From the NCBI GenBank assembly GCA_963740085.1, contig CAVUCU010000004.1, forward strand, positions 352,001-416,000: a stretch of 64,000 nt of DNA, read 5' to 3'. Positions 2,937 through 55,410 of the stretch are shown here, piece by piece. This DNA comes from Nitrospirota bacterium. GTDB lineage: Bacteria > Nitrospirota > UBA9217. The position numbers were made by a program, and so were the translations under genes. The notes below the pieces were generated by a model, which saw nothing but the letters and a program-made list of their open reading frames with translations, was not told the origin of the DNA and did not search any database. Position 1 is the stretch's first letter, and each line of letters starts with the position of its first letter.

Positions 2937-4226
2937 ATGGCGAAACACAGAGGCATATACAAGCGTGGTGGCGTTTGGTGGTATCGGTATGCAGACGCAA
3001 GCGGGAAGATTGTTAAATATTCCTCTCGTTCTTCAAAGCAAGCCGATGCAGTGGAGCTACGAGCAAAAGCGACGCTATCCATAAGGGAAGGGAAAAAACC
3101 CGATGCGCCAAAGAAGATTAGGAACTATTCGTTCAATGACCTTGCCGATAAGTATGTCGCATGGATAGAAGATCGGCAAGCATCGGCAGAGATGAAGAGC
3201 TATATCATAGCCCGCTTGAAAGAACGGGAAATCCAGGTATCAGGCGACAATGGCGATATGCAGTCGGTCAAAATTGGCACCTTACCCTTGCGAAGATTCA
3301 ATACATATCTGATTGAACAACTACAGACAGACCTAAAACGTAAGGAACTGAGAGCGCCGAGGAAGAACAGTAAGAAGGTGAATGAACTAACCACTATCAA
3401 CGGCCTGAAGGATTCAAGCTGCAACAGGATATTGAGCACAATAAAGCACATGTTCTCAAAGGCCGTTGAATGGGATATGATAGAGGAAACCACGTTGAAA
3501 AAAATGCGCAAGGTCAAACTTGCCAAAGAGGTGGGCCGGTTGAGGTATCTATCAGCGAAAGAGGCACAAACCCTTGTAAGTGTATGCGAACCTCATTTAC
3601 AGCCGATTGTCATTACCGCTCTGCACACTGGCATGAGGAAAGGGGAAATACTCAACCTCAAATGGGACAACGTAGACATGCAGCATGGTTTTATCTTACT
3701 AGATAAGACTAAGAACGGAGAACGGCGCGAGATACCGATAAATAACACTCTGAGAGAAACGCTAAATAGACTTCCTCGCAATTTCACAGGAGAGAAGGAA
3801 AACCGGCAGCTTGTCCCGTATGTGTTCCATGACCCGAAGACGTACAAACCCTATGGAGGTGTGAAGCACAGTTTTAATTCAGCCGTGAAGCGTGCAGTGA
3901 TAGTTGACTTTCACTTTTACGATCTGAGACACACGTTTGCGAGTCTTGCCATGATGTCCAGTCAGATAGACATAACCACGCTCTCGAAAATCTTAGGTCA
4001 TAAGAGTCTTAAGATGACGATGAAGTACGCCCACCTTGCACCGGCACACTTACAGAAGGCAGTTTTTGTAATGGATGAAGTGTACCGCGTGTCAACTGAC
4101 ACAAAACTGGCACAGTCAAATGAAAAAGGGTTAGTCAATGATGACCAACCCCTTGAAAACTTGGTGGAGCTGAGGGGGATCGAACCCCTGACCCCAAGAC
4201 TGCCAGCCTTGTGCTCTCCCAGCTGA
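2937..4226 (+). CDS. Phage-type tyrosine recombinase/integrase
   Basis: TGMRKGEI, KTKNG, YDLRHTF and LGHKSLKMTMKYAH catalytic motifs; N-terminal arm-binding-like region; abuts the tRNA 3' end. Confidence 0.92.
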   Translation: MAKHRGIYKRGGVWWYRYADASGKIVKYSSRSSKQADAVELRAKATLSIREGKKPDAPKKIRNYSFNDLADKYVAWIEDRQASAEMKSYIIARLKEREIQVSGDNGDMQSVKIGTLPLRRFNTYLIEQLQTDLKRKELRAPRKNSKKVNELTTINGLKDSSCNRILSTIKHMFSKAVEWDMIEETTLKKMRKVKLAKEVGRLRYLSAKEAQTLVSVCEPHLQPIVITALHTGMRKGEILNLKWDNVDMQHGFILLDKTKNGERREIPINNTLRETLNRLPRNFTGEKENRQLVPYVFHDPKTYKPYGGVKHSFNSAVKRAVIVDFHFYDLRHTFASLAMMSSQIDITTLSKILGHKSLKMTMKYAHLAPAHLQKAVFVMDEVYRVSTDTKLAQSNEKGLVNDDQPLENLVELRGIEPLTPRLPALCSPS

Positions 4227-4485: not shown

Positions 4486-6748
4486 ATGAGCGAACCGCAG
4501 GAGAAAAAAGATCCTCAGCCGCCATCCCCGCAGCGCGCCGAGCATGAAGTGCCGCTCGATATGCGGCTCTTGTCCGAAGCCATTATTGAGCTGAATATTT
4601 CCCGAAAGAATGTGGGCATCTACCCTCCAGGCCATATCCAGATCGCCAAAAGCATTGAACGCGCCTACCAGCTCCTCGAAAAAATGTTCGAGATACGGAA
4701 AGAAATGACCCTCGGAGTGGCCAAGGACACCCTGCTGATCGGCAAGGATTACCTTGATCAGAAGAACCCCGTATATCGGGATTTTGCTCTTTCAATGAGC
4801 CAGCAGGGGATCGCATCAGTTACCTTTATCGGCGGCCTGGAAAAGGATGAACTCGTGCGGTTTCACAGGATCCTCGTCACCAAGGCGGAAGATATCAGGG
4901 CTTCGGGTGGAATCGACAAGGTCATGTCCGGGGCGGTTATCCCCCATATCAGGATCCAGTCCATCGATTACAGCAGTTTCCACGTCACCGAGGAACAGGA
5001 GATTTTCAAGACTACCGCCAAGACCGGGGAAGACGAAGGGTCAGGCAGCCATGTGTGGCAGGATTTTGTGACGCACCTCTCAGCAGGCACCCTCGCTGCT
5101 CCGGGGCAGGGGGTGTCGCTGACGGACGCGGAGCATATAGACCCGGCCGAACTTGCACGGCTTCTCAATGAACGCAAGCTGGATACGAACGCCGCAGTAG
5201 AAAGCTATGACAAAATCATCTCAAGCTATGTGCGCGGAACAGCTGAAAAAAAACAAATATCCCAGGAGCAATCGAAGACACTTGCGAACATGAACGCTCT
5301 TTTGAAGCATCTTCACCCGGAGCTGAGAAAACAGTTCCTGTCCGTCGCGTTTAAGAACATTGCGACACGGGCAGGATCTCCGGTTGAGACCGAAGCGGTG
5401 ATCGGGGGATTCACTGACGATATGGTGATAGAGATGCTGGGAGCGGCAAGCGCCGAGGGGCGGGAAATATCTCCGACGCTCGCAGGTCTCGTGGACAAGC
5501 TTGCTCAGGCTCAGACCGAAGGACGGGAGGGACAGCCGGGAAACAGAAAGCAGCCGGCGAAGGGGTTCATTGCCCCCGCTTTTCAGATGGAACATATGCA
5601 GAAGCTGTTTGACCGTGAAAAGTACGAAGAGTATGTGTCTGACGATTATCAATTGATGCTTAAGACGTTGTCCGAGAGCTCTCCGGCAGTGGTTGAACCC
5701 TTCCCGCTGGCAGACCAGCTGCAATCGCTGGAGGACGAGCACCTCGATTTTCAGATCGGCCGGGCGCTTCTCGCTTTTTTGGAAGAGGATATCGATGAAG
5801 AGGACTATAAGGAGTTCGCTCAAAAAATCGTGGCCATTATGCCCCAATTCCTTGAGACCGGCAATTTCGAGATGCTCTGGGATATTTTAGAGACGCTTCG
5901 CAGGCATTCAACGGACAAACCGGTACAAGGCATACGGGAGATAGCATCGGAATCGAGGAAGTTCTTTTTCGATCCGGAATTTATTGCAAAGGCATTGAAC
6001 GCCTTCGACCGATGGATGCGGGAAAAAGGACAAGCGGCCTCCGGCCTGATACAGGCCCTCGGGCCGGATACGATCCCGGGCCTCATGGACATCTACTGCA
6101 ATGACGAAACAGTGGGCGGAAGGAGGATCCTTTTTAACCTGCTGTCCCTTTTCGGGGACCCGGCCGTGCACGAGGCGCAGAAGAGACTGCGTGACCCGCG
6201 GGCGCGACACTGTCCGGAATCTGCTTATTTTAATAGGTCGTGCGGGCAGCGCTGACTCGATCCCCCAGGTAAAATTGTTGCTACGGCACCGGGATCCGAT
6301 GGTGAGGCTCGAAGCGCTCAGCACGCTTCTGAAATTTAAAGACCCGGGAGCGGTAAATCTGCTTCGAAGTGCGATCAATGATAAGGATCCGGACTTTGCC
6401 TATCAAGCCGTCGTCCTGGCGGGACAATTTCGAATTGGGGACGTTACGGAGGATGTCCTGTCGAAGATCAAACGAGTCATACTCTTTGAGACGGATTATG
6501 CCGAGAATGAGGAGATCATCAGGGTACTCGGGAACATTGGAGACGCACGAGCGGTGCCTGAACTTGAAAAACTCGCAAGCGCGACATGGTCCCTCTATCC
6601 CGCCAGCCTCATGCATATGAAGGAAACGATCTATTCGTCGCTTGCGCGATATCCGGGGGAGAAGATCCGCGGTCTCCTCAGGATCGGCGAGAAGCTCAAC
6701 AGCGACACGATCCGCCGGACGTGCAGCCGGCTCGCGGAGAAGCAGTAG
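4486..6748 (+). CDS. HEAT-repeat domain protein, split by a +1 frameshift near 6200
   Basis: ORF 4486-6255 continues into ORF 6101-6748 (DPR/DTVRNLLILIG...DPMVRLEALSTL HEAT repeats); N-terminal IYPPGH motif. Confidence 0.75.
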
Positions 6749-6798
6749 CGACCCGGGGCAGTATGTACGACTCCGGCCTATTTCAGACAGGATGGGAC

Positions 6799-7968
6799 AT
6801 GGCCGACTATGACATTCATGAGGGGCTCTCTCGGGTGATCGCGCAGCTCACTGCCGCTGTCGTGAATACGAGCCTCTACTCGCAGAACCATCCCCAGGTA
6901 GCGCAGTATGTCGAAAAAGCGCATTTCGTTCTGGCGGAGATTCTCCAGAAAAAACCGGAAATAACGCTGCTCCTCATCGGCAACGACCTCATCGCCGATA
7001 ACCGGCAACTGGTGGCAACCGGGTCCGCATCGTATGTGACGAACTTCATCCGTATCCTCAAGAAACGGGCGATCGAGCGCATTACCTTTTCTGAGGGGCT
7101 TCCGAAAGAGGAGCTCCAGAGACTTATTCAGGGCCTTGCCTCTTCGGATACGCTCTCGATACGTTCCACCTCGTTCATCAAGCTCGGCAAGGTGGAACTC
7201 AGGATCAACAAACCTGGCGAACAGCAGTCATTGGCCGACGCAGTTGCCTTGTCGAATGCCGTCGATGTGCCCCAGGAGGTATTCCAGGAGTTGCTTGCAC
7301 TTACCGGGGAGGAGCTCGATCGCCTCAAGGATCTTTACCTTCGCGCCAAACTGCACAAGAAGATCGATGTCCGCAGTGTGGACGACATGGTCAAGGGTTT
7401 TATCCGGGGATTCCGACAGGAGATCAACCCCCTGAGCCTCCTCGCATCACTCAAGTCCGTGAACGAATATACGTTCACCCATGTCACGAATGTTTGTATC
7501 CTTACCATGAGCCTTGCTGAGAATCTTGGTTTTACGGGTGAACACCTGCATCAGATCGGCGTCGCATCGCTCTTGCACGACATCGGAAAGATATTCATCC
7601 CTGATGAGATCCTGAGCAAGCCGGGGATGCTCACACCGGAAGAACGGAGGACTATCGAGACCCATACAGTCAAAGGCGCGCGCTATCTCATGGGAATCGA
7701 GGGGATCCCGAAGTTGTCTGTCCTCGCGGCATTGGAGCACCATCAGAAGTTCGACGGGAACGGATATCCGTCGATCAAGGGCGGATGGACGCCGAATATT
7801 ACAAGCCAGCTGATCAGCGTTGCGGACGTCTTCGATGCCATGAGGAGCCGGCGCTCCTATCAGGAGCCAAAACCCCTGGAATTGATCGAATCCGTGCTGA
7901 CGAAAGGAAAGAGCACATCGTTTAATCCGATGGTCGTTGATCGTTTCCTTAACATGATAAAACGATGA
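6799..7968 (+). CDS. HD-GYP domain phosphodiesterase
   Basis: HDIGK, HHQKFDGNGYP and VADVFDAMRS motifs; start codon uncertain (6763 or 6799). Confidence 0.9.
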   Translation: MADYDIHEGLSRVIAQLTAAVVNTSLYSQNHPQVAQYVEKAHFVLAEILQKKPEITLLLIGNDLIADNRQLVATGSASYVTNFIRILKKRAIERITFSEGLPKEELQRLIQGLASSDTLSIRSTSFIKLGKVELRINKPGEQQSLADAVALSNAVDVPQEVFQELLALTGEELDRLKDLYLRAKLHKKIDVRSVDDMVKGFIRGFRQEINPLSLLASLKSVNEYTFTHVTNVCILTMSLAENLGFTGEHLHQIGVASLLHDIGKIFIPDEILSKPGMLTPEERRTIETHTVKGARYLMGIEGIPKLSVLAALEHHQKFDGNGYPSIKGGWTPNITSQLISVADVFDAMRSRRSYQEPKPLELIESVLTKGKSTSFNPMVVDRFLNMIKR

Positions 7969-32785: not shown

Positions 32786-32860
32786 TAACTGGATGCGAAG
32801 CTGGGCCGCTGAAATAAAATAATGCTATACTCTATAGAAAAAGTCTCCAGGAGGTGCTCG

Positions 32861-33346
32861 ATGAAAAAATTCATGTTTGTCGTCTTATGTGTGTTGCTGG
32901 CAGCCGCCAACGCATTTGCGGCGCCGGCCGCGACGGTGAAGTCGCTGAGCGGTCTTAAGCAGGTGAAGATCGTGGTTGATGTCAATGTCGGCAGTCCCAA
33001 AATGCTTCTGTCGCGGATGGATCTTCTTGATAAGACGTACCGGCAGTTGGCGGCGGCAGGGATGAAACCGGTCGTTGTCGTGGCTTTTCGCGGCAGGGCC
33101 AGTCTCTTCATAACCAAAGGCGACGGTTATGTTGCCGAGGATGAGAAGGGGGCCAAGCTCGAAATGAAGTCATGGATCGAACGATTCAAACAGGAAGGGT
33201 TTACCATTGAACAGTGCTCCCTAGCAGCAGGGTTTCTCAAAATTAATCTGAAGGATTTCCTCCCGCAGGTTGAGGTCGTGGAAAACGGCTATGTCTCATT
33301 GATCGGGTATCAGCAGCAGGGATATGCGTATCTCCCAATGGACTGA
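32861..33346 (+). CDS. Secreted DsrE-like protein
   Basis: Signal peptide; VVAFRGRA, EQC and NGYVSLIGYQQQGYAYLP motifs. Confidence 0.7.
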   Translation: MKKFMFVVLCVLLAAANAFAAPAATVKSLSGLKQVKIVVDVNVGSPKMLLSRMDLLDKTYRQLAAAGMKPVVVVAFRGRASLFITKGDGYVAEDEKGAKLEMKSWIERFKQEGFTIEQCSLAAGFLKINLKDFLPQVEVVENGYVSLIGYQQQGYAYLPMD

Positions 33347-34715: not shown

Positions 34716-34751
34716 GAACCCTGGAACCCTGAACCCTGAACCCTGAACCCC
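34716..34751. repeat. (GAACCCT)n heptamer tandem repeat
   Basis: About five copies immediately downstream of the sbtM stop. Confidence 0.85.
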
Positions 34752-34758
34752 GACGGCA

Positions 34759-36367
34759 TTATCGAGGGGATTGATCGTGCAGAAAGCAGAAGGGGTCCTT
34801 GTCCTCAAAGATATTGAGTCCATGGCTGTTTGTACTGGCGAGGCATCCGCCGCAGACGGGGCGAATGGCGCATGTCCGGCACGCCGCGGTCCCCGTGCGA
34901 TAGCGTTTCGCCAATTCCGAATCATAGATCTCCGAGATGCTCTGCTCGTGGACATCGCCGATGGGCGAGGGAAATTTTCGGCAGGCATGAACTTCGCCAT
35001 CCGCGAGGAGCGTCACGAAATTGAATGCTGCGCCGCATCCGTAGCCGGTACAACCGCCGAAGAGTGCGACTATCATGTTCGTGGCGGATGATGTTGATGA
35101 GGTTGTCCTTGATCCCCATGACGGGGTTGGTTTTAGCAGCCTCGAGATATGATTGGAGAAAAGAACGGTAGTGCCGGGCTTCCGGTAAGAGAAGATTAGC
35201 ACCTTCGCCGACCATGGAGAGCCGGTTGAAATGGAAGGTATCCGTCTTCCCGCGGAGCACCTCGGCGAGCGGCAGTACCTGGTCGATGTTCCCGCTCGTC
35301 AGGGTGAGCATGACCATGGATGATACACCGAGCTCTCTGAGGACATCGAGGAAGGCCATGATCCGGTCAAAATGACCAGTGCCGCGGATACTGTCGTTAT
35401 GCTTCCGCAGACCCTCCAGGCTCACCTGGAAAAAAGCGGGCATTTGGACGGCGATCAATTCCTCGATCTGCTCCCGCGAAGCGGGATTGCCGAGGATCGC
35501 CGTGGTGAAGCCGCGCTCTGCGGCAGCGCGGTAGATCTCCGGGAACGCCGGGTGAAGGAGGGGATTGCCGCCCGTAAAGGAGACCGCGCCGGTGACGTTC
35601 TTATTCCTGCAGAACATGCGCAGATCATCCAGCACGCTCACTGCCTGGTCGAACGTCACGGGAGGCCGGTCGCTGCGGTCATAGCAATGCTTGCAGTGAA
35701 GATCGCAGGCCTGTGTGATGTGCCACTGAAGGGTGAAAGACGGCGATGAAAAAAACTGATCGGGGATCCCATTGCCGCGGTGAAAGACCTCGGGGTCCCG
35801 CCTGATAAGCGACGGCGGTGTGAGTACGAGACCGCGCGCCCATGCGCGGACGAGCGCACGATCAATAGCACCGACGGGCAGTTTCCCCTGCGTCGCGACG
35901 GTCTCCGGAGCTACGCGCTCAACGACCATTTTGAGGACAAGGAGGTCTTCGTCCGTCGCCGGCCGCGCAATTACGCGGCCGGTAAGGTGGTTGAAATAAA
36001 CGAGTAGGCGCTCCCTCGTTTGAACGGGAGGGTTGGAACCGCGCTGGTCATGACCAAGGAAAACGGCCAGGTTCTTCCACGAAACCTCGATGATCTGCAG
36101 CGTGGGGTTGATGCAGGATCGAGCGACCTCAGCAGGGATTGATCCCGCGTTTTTTTTGACGGAGAAGGTTGTTTCCTCTAAAAGGGCGAGGTCGGACAAA
36201 AATATCGGTATCGAGCGGTCATGCTGATGGGACAGCATTTTCGACAATGACTGTGCAGCGATCGCGCCGGCCCATTGCGTGGAGAAGCGGGCCCATGCTT
36301 TTTCGCCCAGGACATTTCGACATGCTCGATACCGGGTGTCAACGTTTTTGTCTGGAAAAGGGTCCAT
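34759..36367 (-). CDS. sbtM: SbtM-type thio(seleno)oxazole RiPP radical SAM/SPASM maturase, +1 frameshift near 35065
   Basis: FTLQWHITQACDLHCKHC; SFTGGNP; SPASM FGGCTGYGCGAAFNF..HACRK..CRTCAIRPVCGGC..DPFC in the next frame; long N-terminal precursor-recognition-like region. Confidence 0.85.
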
Positions 36368-36465
36368 GGCATCAGAAAAACGGGATCCCGGCAGTGTATG
36401 GACCTAAACGGTCATCATCGCCGGACCACAACTTGTCAATGCGTGTTCTTGATGTACTCGTGTTT

Positions 36466-36488
36466 GCCGGCAGGTCTATCCTGCCGGC
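36466..36488. other. Perfect GC-rich hairpin between precursor and maturase genes
   Basis: GCCGGCAGG-TCTAT-CCTGCCGGC. Confidence 0.7.
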
Positions 36489-36521
36489 TGTTTCCCGGAA
36501 CATTTGATAGTGCAAACTGCA

Positions 36522-36758
36522 CTATTTGCTGCCGCTTCAGCCGCCTGTCGGGGTAGGGTCAGAAGCCGGTTCAGCTTTTGTTCCGCTTCAGCTGCCGTGC
36601 GTTGAGGTCTGCTCAGTGGTAACGCCTGTACCACCTGTTGAACCAGCTCAACTGCTCTCTGCGGCGCCTGTCGTCGCACCGAGAGTGAGTCCGGCGCCGG
36701 CAACCAATCCGGCAATTCCGAAGCCTGCCAGTAACTTTTTAAGCTCTTGAATATCCAT
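36522..36758 (-). CDS. sbtA: SbtA-type RiPP precursor with three predicted selenocysteines (absent from the ORF track)
   Basis: AGGAGGTG RBS; translation MDIQELKKLLAGFGIAGLVAGAGLTLGATTGAAESSUAGSTGGTGVTTEQTSTHGSUSGTKAEPASDPTPTGGUSGSK-TAG; UGA codons at 36650, 36590 and 36539. Confidence 0.85.
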
Positions 36759-37001
36759 GTTTCACCTCCTTTTCGCCACGTGTCTGCGTAAATGACGCGT
36801 TATCGGATGGGGTAAATCGATCATTGTTATTCTTGCCGGCTTACTGTATATCCCAAGCATGAGTAGTTTGAAAAGGGATGATCGGCATATATAGATAAAG
36901 TCTATTGGTTCCTGGTATCATTGTCAAGAACTGATTCGAGCAGATGAGGTCAGGGTGAAAGGGCCGTTCCGGGGACATGCGGGGTTGGGTATGGCTTCCC
37001 G

Positions 37002-52621: not shown

Positions 52622-53926
52622 ATGATCGAATTCGACCGAAATAATAAACTGGAATTCTCCGATCCGGGGAAGATCAGGGAGGTACAGGAAGGGCTGCTGA
52701 AAAAGCATGTCCTTTATTGCGCAGACCATTCTCCCTATTACCGGGAGCTGTTCCGCCAGCAGGGTGTCGATGCACGAGCCATTACCCTCGACAGGCTGCG
52801 CGATCTTCCTCTTACGGACAAAACCGCGCTCAGCCTTGCAAATGACGATTTTCTTGCCGTTCCGCCGTCGCAGATAGTGGATATCGTGCTGTCCTCGGGG
52901 ACCACAGGCAAGCCGACGAAGATGATGTATACCGAAAACGATCTCAGGCGGCTTGCTTACAACGAAGAAATTTCCTTCAAAAGCTGCGGATTGACGCGGG
53001 ACGATATTGTGCTGCTGACCTGCACCATGGACCGCTGCTTCATCGCCGGCCTGGCTTACTTTTCGGGTGTCCGGAGCCTGGGCGCGGCGGCCATCAGGAA
53101 CGGCCTGAGCAGCTTTGACAGCCATCTCGAGATCATTCTGCGGTTGAAACCGACGGCCGTCGTGGGTGTGCCTACGTTCCTGCTCAAGCTCGGACAGTTC
53201 ATAAAATCGCAGGACATCGATCCGCGCGGGGTCGGCATCGGGAAACTGATCTGTATCGGCGAACCGATCAGGGACCGTTCTCTCGCATTCCTTCGGATCG
53301 GCGAAAGCCTGGAATCGGTCTGGGGAGCGAAGATCTATTCTACCTACGCCTCCTCGGAGACCATCACCTCGTTCTGCGAGTGCACTGCCCAGCAAGGCGG
53401 ACACCTGCATCCAGACCTGGCTGTGGCGGAGATCGTGAGCGACCAGGGCGAAGTGCTCCCTGCCGGCGAACCGGGCGAGGTGGTGATAACTCCCCTGGCG
53501 ATCGAAGGCATGCCCGTGCTCAGGTTTAGAACCGGTGATATCGGTTTTATCATTGATGAACCCTGCGCCTGCGGACGGCATTCGCATCGCCTGGGCCCCA
53601 TCCTCGGGAGAAAGAAGCAGATGATCAAGTTCCGCGGAACGACGCTGTATCCCAATTCTCTGTACACGGTCCTCGACTCGTTCCCCGGGATCAGCGAATA
53701 CTTCGTGACCGCAACGAGCGACTACGACCTTTCCGATGTGGTCAGGGTCACCATTGCCGTGAAAGATCCATCCTGCTCCGCCGACGTGATCATGGATAAG
53801 CTTCAGGCGCACCTGCGGGTGAGGCCTGAAGTGATCATCGCGAGCGAGGAGAGCGTGAAACGTCAGGTCTATGCCGGGAATTCCCGGAAGTTAATTCGTT
53901 TTGTGGATAAGAGAAAGAAAATATGA
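52622..53926 (+). CDS. Phenylacetate-CoA ligase-like adenylating enzyme
   Basis: SSGTTGKP, STYASSE, RFRTGD and GRKKQMIK motifs. Confidence 0.88.
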   Translation: MIEFDRNNKLEFSDPGKIREVQEGLLKKHVLYCADHSPYYRELFRQQGVDARAITLDRLRDLPLTDKTALSLANDDFLAVPPSQIVDIVLSSGTTGKPTKMMYTENDLRRLAYNEEISFKSCGLTRDDIVLLTCTMDRCFIAGLAYFSGVRSLGAAAIRNGLSSFDSHLEIILRLKPTAVVGVPTFLLKLGQFIKSQDIDPRGVGIGKLICIGEPIRDRSLAFLRIGESLESVWGAKIYSTYASSETITSFCECTAQQGGHLHPDLAVAEIVSDQGEVLPAGEPGEVVITPLAIEGMPVLRFRTGDIGFIIDEPCACGRHSHRLGPILGRKKQMIKFRGTTLYPNSLYTVLDSFPGISEYFVTATSDYDLSDVVRVTIAVKDPSCSADVIMDKLQAHLRVRPEVIIASEESVKRQVYAGNSRKLIRFVDKRKKI

Positions 53927-55410
53927 AAACATGTCAAAGCCGTATTTACGGCGCGGAATTCTCCCAGCAGGAGATCGCCGAGGCCGTCCGTGGGGGCCGG
54001 CTGCTTTCCATGGAGATGGAGTTCAACAAGAGCTGCAATTTCCGGTGCCTCTACTGCTATGCGTCCGACCATACCGTTCATCGGAACGAACTGAGCAAAC
54101 ATGAGTTCCTTGACCTCATCAACCAGGCCAGGGAACTGGGCGCGAGGAAGATCATCGTCCTCGGCGGCGAACCCATGCTCTATCCGTCCATCATAGAGAT
54201 GATCCAATACATCAGGGACCTCGGAATGGATGTCGAGCTCTTCACGAACGGGACGAACGTCACCCGTGAGATGGCTCAGACGCTGTATGGTCTCGGAGTG
54301 CGCGTGGTCCTCAAGATGAACACGTTCGAGGAAAAGATCCAGGACATGCTTTCGGGAAGGAAGGGCGCGCACGTCCAGATCCATGAAGCGTTCAATAACC
54401 TGAAACTGGCCGGCTATCCGTCTGCGGACCATTTCATGGGGATCAGCACGGTTATTTGTCAGCAGAACATCGATGAGCTCCCGAAGATGTGGGAGTGGCT
54501 GCGGGACCAGAACATCGCTCCCTATTTCGAGATGATCACCCCGCAGGGTGGCGCCAAAGAACACAATATGCTTGAAGTCGATTCCCGGCAGGTCGAAGAG
54601 CTTTTTCACCGGATCTCCAGGATCGACCGGAAGAAATACGGGCACACCTGGGACCCAAAGCCTCCGCTCGTCGGCGGCGAGTGTCTTCGTCACCAGTTCT
54701 CCTGCGCGGTCAACTCCGAAGGCTTTGTGCAGCCGTGCGTAGGGGTCACGATCCCGATCGGCAATGTGCGCAAACAACGGCTCAAGGACATTCTGCGTGA
54801 GAGTGAGGTGGTCCAGGACCTCAAGAACTATACCGAGACCATCAAGGGTCCCTGCAGCGAATGCGAACGCTTGAGCGAATGTTACGGCTGCCGGGGAGCG
54901 GCATACCAGATGACCGGCGACTACCTTGCTTCCGACCCCCTGTGCTGGAAGAACCTGGACAGGCGGGACGATATCATGTTCCTGCCGGTGGATGCCGGCC
55001 AGCTCGTTCCGCACAAACAGCCCATGCTTCTCATCGACCGGCTCCTCGAGGTCCAGGAGCGGGCATCGCTTTCCGAGATGATCGTGCGTGCGGACATGCT
55101 CTTCGTGGGAAAGGACGGGAAGCTCGATGATGTCTCGTATCCCGAGATCATATCCCAGGCGATCGCCGCACAGGAGGGCTTTCGAAAGCTCGGGAGCCGT
55201 AATCCTCAGCAGGAAGGTTTTCTGCTCGGCATCAAGAACATCGAGATCGTCGGCAGCGCGCGCGTCGGAGACACCCTTCGCGTATCAGTGTTCAAGGTCG
55301 CTAAGTACGGGGACTTCGGAATTATCCGGGGAGAGGTCAGGAATGGCGACACCCTGATCGCCAGCGGAGAGGTAAAGGTCTGGCAGGGCAATGGCAAGGC
55401 GGCGGCATGA
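53923..55410 (+). CDS. Radical SAM/SPASM protein fused to a C-terminal hotdog (dehydratase-like) domain
   Basis: CNFRCLYC; SPASM CLRH..C..QPC..CSEC...CYGCRG..DPLC; then LVPHKQPMLLIDRL...EIISQAIAA...GFLLGI. Confidence 0.85.
   Translation: MKTCQSRIYGAEFSQQEIAEAVRGGRLLSMEMEFNKSCNFRCLYCYASDHTVHRNELSKHEFLDLINQARELGARKIIVLGGEPMLYPSIIEMIQYIRDLGMDVELFTNGTNVTREMAQTLYGLGVRVVLKMNTFEEKIQDMLSGRKGAHVQIHEAFNNLKLAGYPSADHFMGISTVICQQNIDELPKMWEWLRDQNIAPYFEMITPQGGAKEHNMLEVDSRQVEELFHRISRIDRKKYGHTWDPKPPLVGGECLRHQFSCAVNSEGFVQPCVGVTIPIGNVRKQRLKDILRESEVVQDLKNYTETIKGPCSECERLSECYGCRGAAYQMTGDYLASDPLCWKNLDRRDDIMFLPVDAGQLVPHKQPMLLIDRLLEVQERASLSEMIVRADMLFVGKDGKLDDVSYPEIISQAIAAQEGFRKLGSRNPQQEGFLLGIKNIEIVGSARVGDTLRVSVFKVAKYGDFGIIRGEVRNGDTLIASGEVKVWQGNGKAAA

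Follow-up and report, generated by a model that had tools for sequence, protein, structure and literature searches.

A probable SbtA-type precursor gene with three in-frame UGA codons and no cysteine, next to an sbtM gene that is frameshifted in the assembly

The sbtA-sbtM locus

The locus lies within a stretch of 64,000 nucleotides (the window) from a genome assembly of 3.46 Mb, which consists of 7 contigs and is 98.5% complete. On the minus strand a short precursor gene, sbtA, is followed by the gene of its putative maturase, sbtM, which is split over two frames in the assembly. From upstream to downstream the features are as follows.

36899..36927, minus strand: candidate promoter-like site TTGACA-17 nt-TAGACT, 10/12 matches, about 140 nt upstream of the ATG
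36763..36770, minus strand: ribosome-binding site AGGAGGTG of sbtA, with a 4-nt spacer to the ATG
36522..36758, minus strand: sbtA, precursor gene of 78 codons with ATG start, UGA at codons 37, 57 and 74, and TAG stop
35066..36367, minus strand: first part of sbtM, N-terminal peptide-binding region and radical SAM core with the motif CxxxCxxC
35066..35072, minus strand: frameshift site of sbtM, one extra base in comparison to the closest relative (G006), not in a homopolymer run
34759..35067, minus strand: second part of sbtM, SPASM domain, in another frame

The start codon of sbtA occupies positions 36758-36756, the in-frame TGA codons are found at 36650-36648 (codon 37), 36590-36588 (codon 57) and 36539-36537 (codon 74), and the TAG stop at 36524-36522. 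An earlier note on this DNA had given the same ribosome-binding site, start, TGA codons and stop, and each of these elements is exact on the minus strand. The encoded peptide of 78 residues contains three selenocysteine (Sec) residues and not a single Cys; its Sec contexts SS-U-AG, GS-U-SG and GG-U-SG, which had been claimed together with the absence of Cys, were confirmed by translation.

Residues 1-26 of the peptide match positions 1-26 of 27 of TIGR04081, the NCBIfam model for SbtA family thio(seleno)oxazole RiPP precursors, with 44.4 bits compared to a curated cut-off of 30.5, which is the outcome of a profile search that the earlier note had suggested as a check. A search of the whole genome with the same model returned a single SbtA leader match (46 bits), and no second sbtA was identified in the 3.46 Mb or in the upstream spacer. 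The Pfam-A search of the SbtA peptide gave no match. The leader comprises a charged KK, then a hydrophobic stretch and then small residues, and resembles a signal peptide.

The stop of sbtA (36522) and the start of sbtM (36367) are separated by 154 nt on the same strand with sbtA upstream, and the first part of sbtM reaches 530.8 bits against TIGR04082 (cut-off 350, profile positions 2-422 of 516), which bears out the assertion that the precursor gene lies directly upstream of an SbtM-type gene. The spacer contains a perfect GC-rich hairpin of 9 bp with a 5-nt loop (36466-36488, minus strand) that is not followed by a U-run and may be an attenuator or a processing site setting the ratio of precursor to enzyme. 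The promoter-like site is listed as a candidate only, since the region upstream of sbtA holds three such sites compared to 1.4 +/- 1.2 in shuffled sequences.

In the public protein collection the gene is represented by a product of 36 residues, accompanied by 10 similar 36-residue products; all are tagged PF27804, and one source gives three of them the name 'selenobiotic family peptide'. With the read-through peptide as query no homologues of 42-137 residues were found in that collection. The gene callers do call sbtA, but they end it at the first UGA, ahead of all cores, so that only the 36-residue leader is left. The statement that callers miss this gene is hence correct for the core region, which is left out of the call, but not for the leader ORF, which is called and carries its Pfam tag. 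Automatic annotation stops SbtA precursors at the first UGA, and as a consequence protein databases do not show any of the core region of this family of selenium natural products.

SbtA peptides in related genomes

We searched 40 related genomes (the close set) for SbtM. A full-length unbroken SbtM is encoded in 8/40, and upstream of each of these 8 genes either one SbtA gene or two in tandem were found, with 2-3 in-frame UGA codons. A motif of the type AGGAGGTG precedes 10/11 SbtA genes of the close set, the present one included; the exception is G006, the closest genome and a member of the same genus, which has GGGGGTG.

The peptide was aligned with its 10 nearest relatives (n = 11) in order to follow the interchange of UGA and Cys codons. 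The column of U37 contains U in seven, C in two and S in two sequences (Sec or Cys in 9), that of U57 contains U in six, C in four and G in one (Sec or Cys in 10), and that of U74 contains U in six and C in three, with a gap in two (Sec or Cys in 9). The interchange, proposed earlier as a check, is thus seen at all three positions among the 11 aligned sequences. The frame behind UGA-37 is conserved at the protein level in the 10 relatives. The cores of G006 read U, C, U, U, and its Cys aligns with U57 of the present peptide; the second SbtA gene of locus L060 is all-Cys at four cores. In locus L026 (genome G010, 3240-3260) the last core reads TCA (Ser) in place of the TGA of the others, while the terminal hairpin is kept; this is either a recent change from Sec to Ser or a sequencing error.

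Because the leader scores above the TIGR04081 cut-off and is the sole match of the genome, and because the UGA/Cys columns are conserved in the relatives, the frame at 36758-36522 goes beyond chance. We consider it a genuine sbtA, which would encode a thio(seleno)oxazole peptide precursor with three Sec and no Cys, at a probability of roughly 0.9 as judged from sequence comparison.

Most of the nearest relatives have a fourth core, whereas the present gene ends after the third. Since its last core and the hairpin behind it resemble the end unit of the relatives with four cores, this sbtA has apparently lost one repeat unit.

For a wider view one genome per species was taken, which gave 249 SbtM relatives, of which the best 80 loci were kept; some of these loci belong to genomes that are also among the 40 related ones. 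With a leader HMM built from 11 first genes, an SbtA leader was detected at 72/80 SbtM loci (the best 80 of 249). Sec cores were counted in 71 distinct peptides from these loci, with five peptides dropped (four run-on frames of more than 130 residues and a fifth truncated by the end of its contig); the counts, which rely on a custom motif pattern and are approximate, are as follows.

0 Sec cores: 7/71 peptides (best 80 of 249 SbtM loci)
1 Sec core: 5/71 peptides
2 Sec cores: 27/71 peptides
3 Sec cores: 26/71 peptides
4 Sec cores: 5/71 peptides
5 Sec cores: 1/71 peptides

At least two Sec cores are therefore present in 59/71 and at least three in 32/71 of the SbtA-like peptides from the best 80 of 249 loci, so that several Sec are the rule in this family and not a rarity. 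The combination found in the present peptide, at least three Sec and no Cys after the leader, occurs in 11/71 (best 80 of 249 loci). Across the family the UGA always stands in the same Gly/Ser context (best 80 of 249 SbtM loci). The closest named relatives among these loci are labelled Nitrospirota or Nitrospiraceae, the others carry labels of classes of the Desulfobacterota, with single MAGs of other phyla.

A lipobox-like motif, with a Cys right after the leader, was found in 42/75 leaders, a number that includes one false match and misses a few near matches. The present SbtA does not have the lipobox Cys and carries the small residues G-A-A in its place.

Genomes G038 (locus L029) and G029 (locus L031), in another family, encode shorter SbtM-like radical SAM proteins, which match profile positions 195-516 only. 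The genes adjoin one for a membrane protein with a C-terminal tail rich in Cys, Gly and Ser, which is not an SbtA, and these matches were left out of the SbtA counts.

Reading of the UGA codons and state of sbtM

The genome search for Sec machinery, another check put forward earlier, gave a complete set. The genes selA (607.8 bits) and selB (376.5 bits) are adjacent on contig C3, in the region 190079-198514 which also contains the tRNA-Sec, and both are over their cut-offs. The tRNA-Sec (66.7 bits) is located about 5 kb downstream of selA/selB and has the anticodon tca (ARAGORN). On contig C1 selD was identified with 351.1 bits, likewise over its cut-off; it has one in-frame TGA, and SelD is thus a selenoprotein itself. 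The organism is a selenocysteine user with one sbtA/sbtM pair, the enzyme gene of which may or may not be intact.

Behind the three UGA codons the following hairpins could be drawn.

36615..36635, minus strand: candidate SECIS for UGA-37, 7-bp stem that starts 16 nt after the U of the UGA, with GG in the apical loop
36562..36590, minus strand: weak candidate SECIS for UGA-57, with the UGA within the lower stem and two A-A mismatches in the upper stem
36507..36525, minus strand: putative SECIS hairpin for UGA-74, stem of 8 bp that begins 15 nt after the U of the UGA, with loop GUU

Judged from folding and alignment, the candidate for UGA-74 is a clear one, that for UGA-37 is plausible and that for UGA-57 is weak. 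The hairpin of UGA-74, the stem of which includes the TAG stop, lies in a stretch with a modest z of -1.44 against shuffled sequences. The same hairpin follows the last UGA in 10/10 aligned genes; its stem is paired in 98.6% of 70 cells and shows a single compensatory change, from A-U to C-G. As 40/500 shuffles reach the same values for pairing and compensation, its support comes from conservation more than from covariation. The hairpin of UGA-37 is kept in the relatives, with one compensatory change from U-A to A-U in L062, but the 61 nt after this UGA do not fold better than dinucleotide shuffles (z +0.56). The fold at UGA-57 was read by eye and is not the one chosen by RNAfold (z +0.83 against dinucleotide shuffles); its orthologue in L062 has 12 bp, begins at the UGA and is free of both A-A mismatches. 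The hairpins at the first site and at the terminus persist behind Cys codons in L057 and L060 and are therefore not exclusive to UGA. An Rfam scan of 36300-36900 with E up to 10 gave chance-level matches only, none of them above the threshold of its family, and no SECIS family.

Over all sites the 50 nt after UGA cores have a mean z against shuffles of -1.56 (111 internal sites) and -1.55 (51 terminal sites), compared to -0.59 after Cys cores (51 sites). The Mann-Whitney p values for this difference are about 1e-6 (internal) and 1e-5 (terminal); they overstate it, since the sites stem from related genomes and cannot be counted as independent.

The two parts of sbtM do not form one continuous frame in the assembly. 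Their TIGR04082 matches abut at 35066/35067, the second part with the SPASM domain scoring 174.1 bits (profile positions 422-516), and the first open frame runs past 35066 as unrelated sequence to 34922. The motif CDLHCKHC aligns with the relatives. In comparison to G006 the gene shows 78% nucleotide identity and a single 1-nt gap, which is located before the SPASM domain; the protein halves are 74% and 79% identical to the G006 protein, every conserved Cys is present, and there is no further stop or shift. A second SbtM above the cut-off is not encoded in the genome. Four runs of one study contain parts of the stretch as public contigs of low depth, which end at 35068 or begin at 35072, and none of them bridges the site; the contig on the SPASM side represents a variant strain of 92% identity (24 differences in 322). 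Among the sequencing runs that match parts of the stretch no RNA data are listed. A programmed frameshift was considered and rejected, as the 8 full-length SbtM from the 40 related genomes show no shift. Just 3' of the sbtM stop a tandem array of the heptamer GAACCCT (plus strand, 4.9 copies, 96% matches) is located at 34716-34750.

The break is either a fresh mutation or an error of the assembly at a position that varies between strains, and that it is real we regard as the doubtful option. Since sbtM is frameshifted before the SPASM domain in the assembly, maturation of the peptide in this organism is uncertain. The earlier proposal of a precursor of a selenoxazole-modified peptide therefore stands as far as a three-Sec, Cys-free SbtA is concerned, but maturation in the own organism is not assured.

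A decaying locus, with an enzyme that lacks its SPASM clusters and a three-Sec peptide that, if made at all, stays unmodified, appears rather unlikely to us. It would explain an extra base outside any homopolymer in a window whose other long genes are intact, which indicates that indels are not a general problem of this assembly. The absence of a second sbtM, the weaker hairpin at UGA-57 in comparison to L062 and the loss of the fourth core, which is present in most close relatives, also fit such a decay. On the other hand both sbtM halves are otherwise perfectly conserved, so that the change would have to be very recent or an artefact; moreover the public contigs break exactly at this site, and the variant piece points to strain variation that could mislead an assembler.

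That the UGA codons are true stops and the 36-residue leader is the only product is very improbable, although the databases contain this form only and the hairpins behind UGA-37 and UGA-57 are not statistically distinctive. A leader without cores offers SbtM no substrate residue, and the conserved frame behind the UGA, the Cys in place of UGA at each of the three columns, the complete Sec machinery and the constant Gly/Ser context of the UGA across the family all argue against termination. Practically negligible is a genome-wide alternative code with another amino acid at UGA, for which nothing specific speaks except that the frame is open under TGA reassignment, as the genome has a dedicated tRNA-Sec with selA, selB and selD, the in-frame UGAs are confined to Cys-equivalent columns, and other genes of the window are complete under table 11 and match their Pfam domains.

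Proposed pathway and comparison with known systems

For a genuine three-Sec sbtA the following pathway may be proposed. Translation would begin at 36758, and SelB with Sec-tRNA would insert Sec at up to three UGA codons, each guided by a downstream hairpin; termination at any of them would shorten the product from 78 to 36, 56 or 73 residues. The radical SAM/SPASM enzyme SbtM would bind the leader and oxidise each X-Sec unit, which becomes a 5-selenooxazole and is 4 Da lighter per site. The 'selenobiotic' family (TIGR04081/TIGR04082) was reportedly described by Haft and Basu in 2011, and Lewis et al. are said to have characterised the SbtM of Geobacter lovleyi in 2021. For a peptide of that species PMC9204691 describes the conversion of Gly-Cys/Sec to the thio(seleno)oxazole by SbtM in vitro, with a loss of 4 Da, and the same SbtA/SbtM chemistry is also treated in PMC11002830.

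The SbtA/SbtM family is thus already curated and, according to PMC9204691, biochemically characterised. The present pair resembles it in the leader match and in the position of the precursor directly upstream of a radical SAM/SPASM maturase, as well as in the UGA within a Gly/Ser motif, the candidate hairpin downstream and the interchange of Cys and Sec. It differs in three respects. The peptide has three Sec and no Cys, whereas PMC9204691 speaks of 'at least two SeCys' and a table of a 2026 review lists TIGR04081 with 2 Sec (PMC13188914). The host is, going by the labels of the relatives, probably a member of the Nitrospirota, whereas in PMC9204691 the pair 'appears to be limited' to Geobacter and Desulfobacteria. 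Finally, sbtM is frameshifted in the assembly. Compared to these sources (PMC9204691 and PMC13188914), three Sec in a probable Nitrospirota host are a modest extension of a known kind.

With other prokaryotic multi-Sec selenoproteins SbtA would share several SelB-dependent UGA recodings in one short mRNA. According to the 2026 review a single Sec is found in most of its 119 prokaryotic selenoprotein families and 2-3 Sec in a small subset (PMC13188914), while the SbtA relatives from the best 80 of 249 loci reach four Sec in 5/71 and five in 1/71 peptides. Three to five Sec per peptide are common in the SbtA family, and this lies above the figures of that catalogue (PMC13188914).

The product is probably exported, because the leader is signal-shaped and is followed by a lipobox-like Cys in more than half of the relatives. 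It may also bind metal, by analogy to the copper-binding peptides with 5-thiooxazoles that are made by MNIO enzymes, namely bufferins, fontiphorin and 'captophorins'. The heterocycle is of the same type, formed there from Cys, and an absorbance at about 305 nm is common to these peptides and the modified SbtM substrate, as stated in a preprint (bioRxiv 10.1101/2025.11.18.689057). As read from their motifs, the SbtA leaders have the shape of signal peptides. The two systems are not homologous: SbtM is an oxygen-independent radical SAM enzyme, whereas MNIO is an O2-dependent multinuclear iron enzyme. Further differences are the heteroatom, which is selenium in SbtA, and the metal, which is copper for the MNIO peptides and a matter of analogy for the SbtA products.

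Taken together, these likenesses suggest a picture that we regard as speculative and unlikely to hold as a whole. SbtA peptides would be exported, often lipid-anchored, periplasmic metal-binding selenooxazole peptides, not cytoplasmic 'bacteriocin-like' products, and would form the anaerobic, radical-SAM selenium counterpart of the MNIO copper-binding thiooxazole peptides. The number of binding units per peptide would track the supply of selenium, since the product becomes shorter whenever translation ends at one of the UGA codons, and a secreted DsrE-like protein could be a partner in the handling of selenium or sulfur. The gene of such a protein is located nearby in the window:

32822..33346, plus strand: secreted DsrE-like protein (PF02635)

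The protein is 76% identical to that of a DsrE-like gene which lies divergently beside sbtA in G006. A DsrE-like gene is the only recurrent neighbour of sbtAM, and this within the genus only; among five relatives the neighbours vary and include an FGGY kinase, CysRS, RACo-like proteins (in two) and MurJ. A link of the protein at 32822-33346 to the sbt system is possible, and the case is a weak one, as it is drawn from two close relatives only. In G008 another, different DsrE-like gene stands beside sbtA.

In loci L053 (5461-6975) and L054 (5609-7084) sbtM is followed directly by a gene for a RACo-like protein (reductive activator, ASKHA domain), and the product of this gene may be an electron-donor partner. 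No RACo-like gene was found in the window analysed here.

Two other regions of the window should be mentioned. At 4486-7968 three overlapping ORFs of the same strand but in different frames (589, 215 and 460 aa) encode HEAT repeats and an HD domain; either the genes overlap or the region may be frameshifted as well. At 53923-55410 another radical SAM/SPASM gene is located within a cluster of the lipid type, together with genes for ketoacyl synthases, an ACP, an acyltransferase and a LolA-like protein, and is unrelated to sbt.
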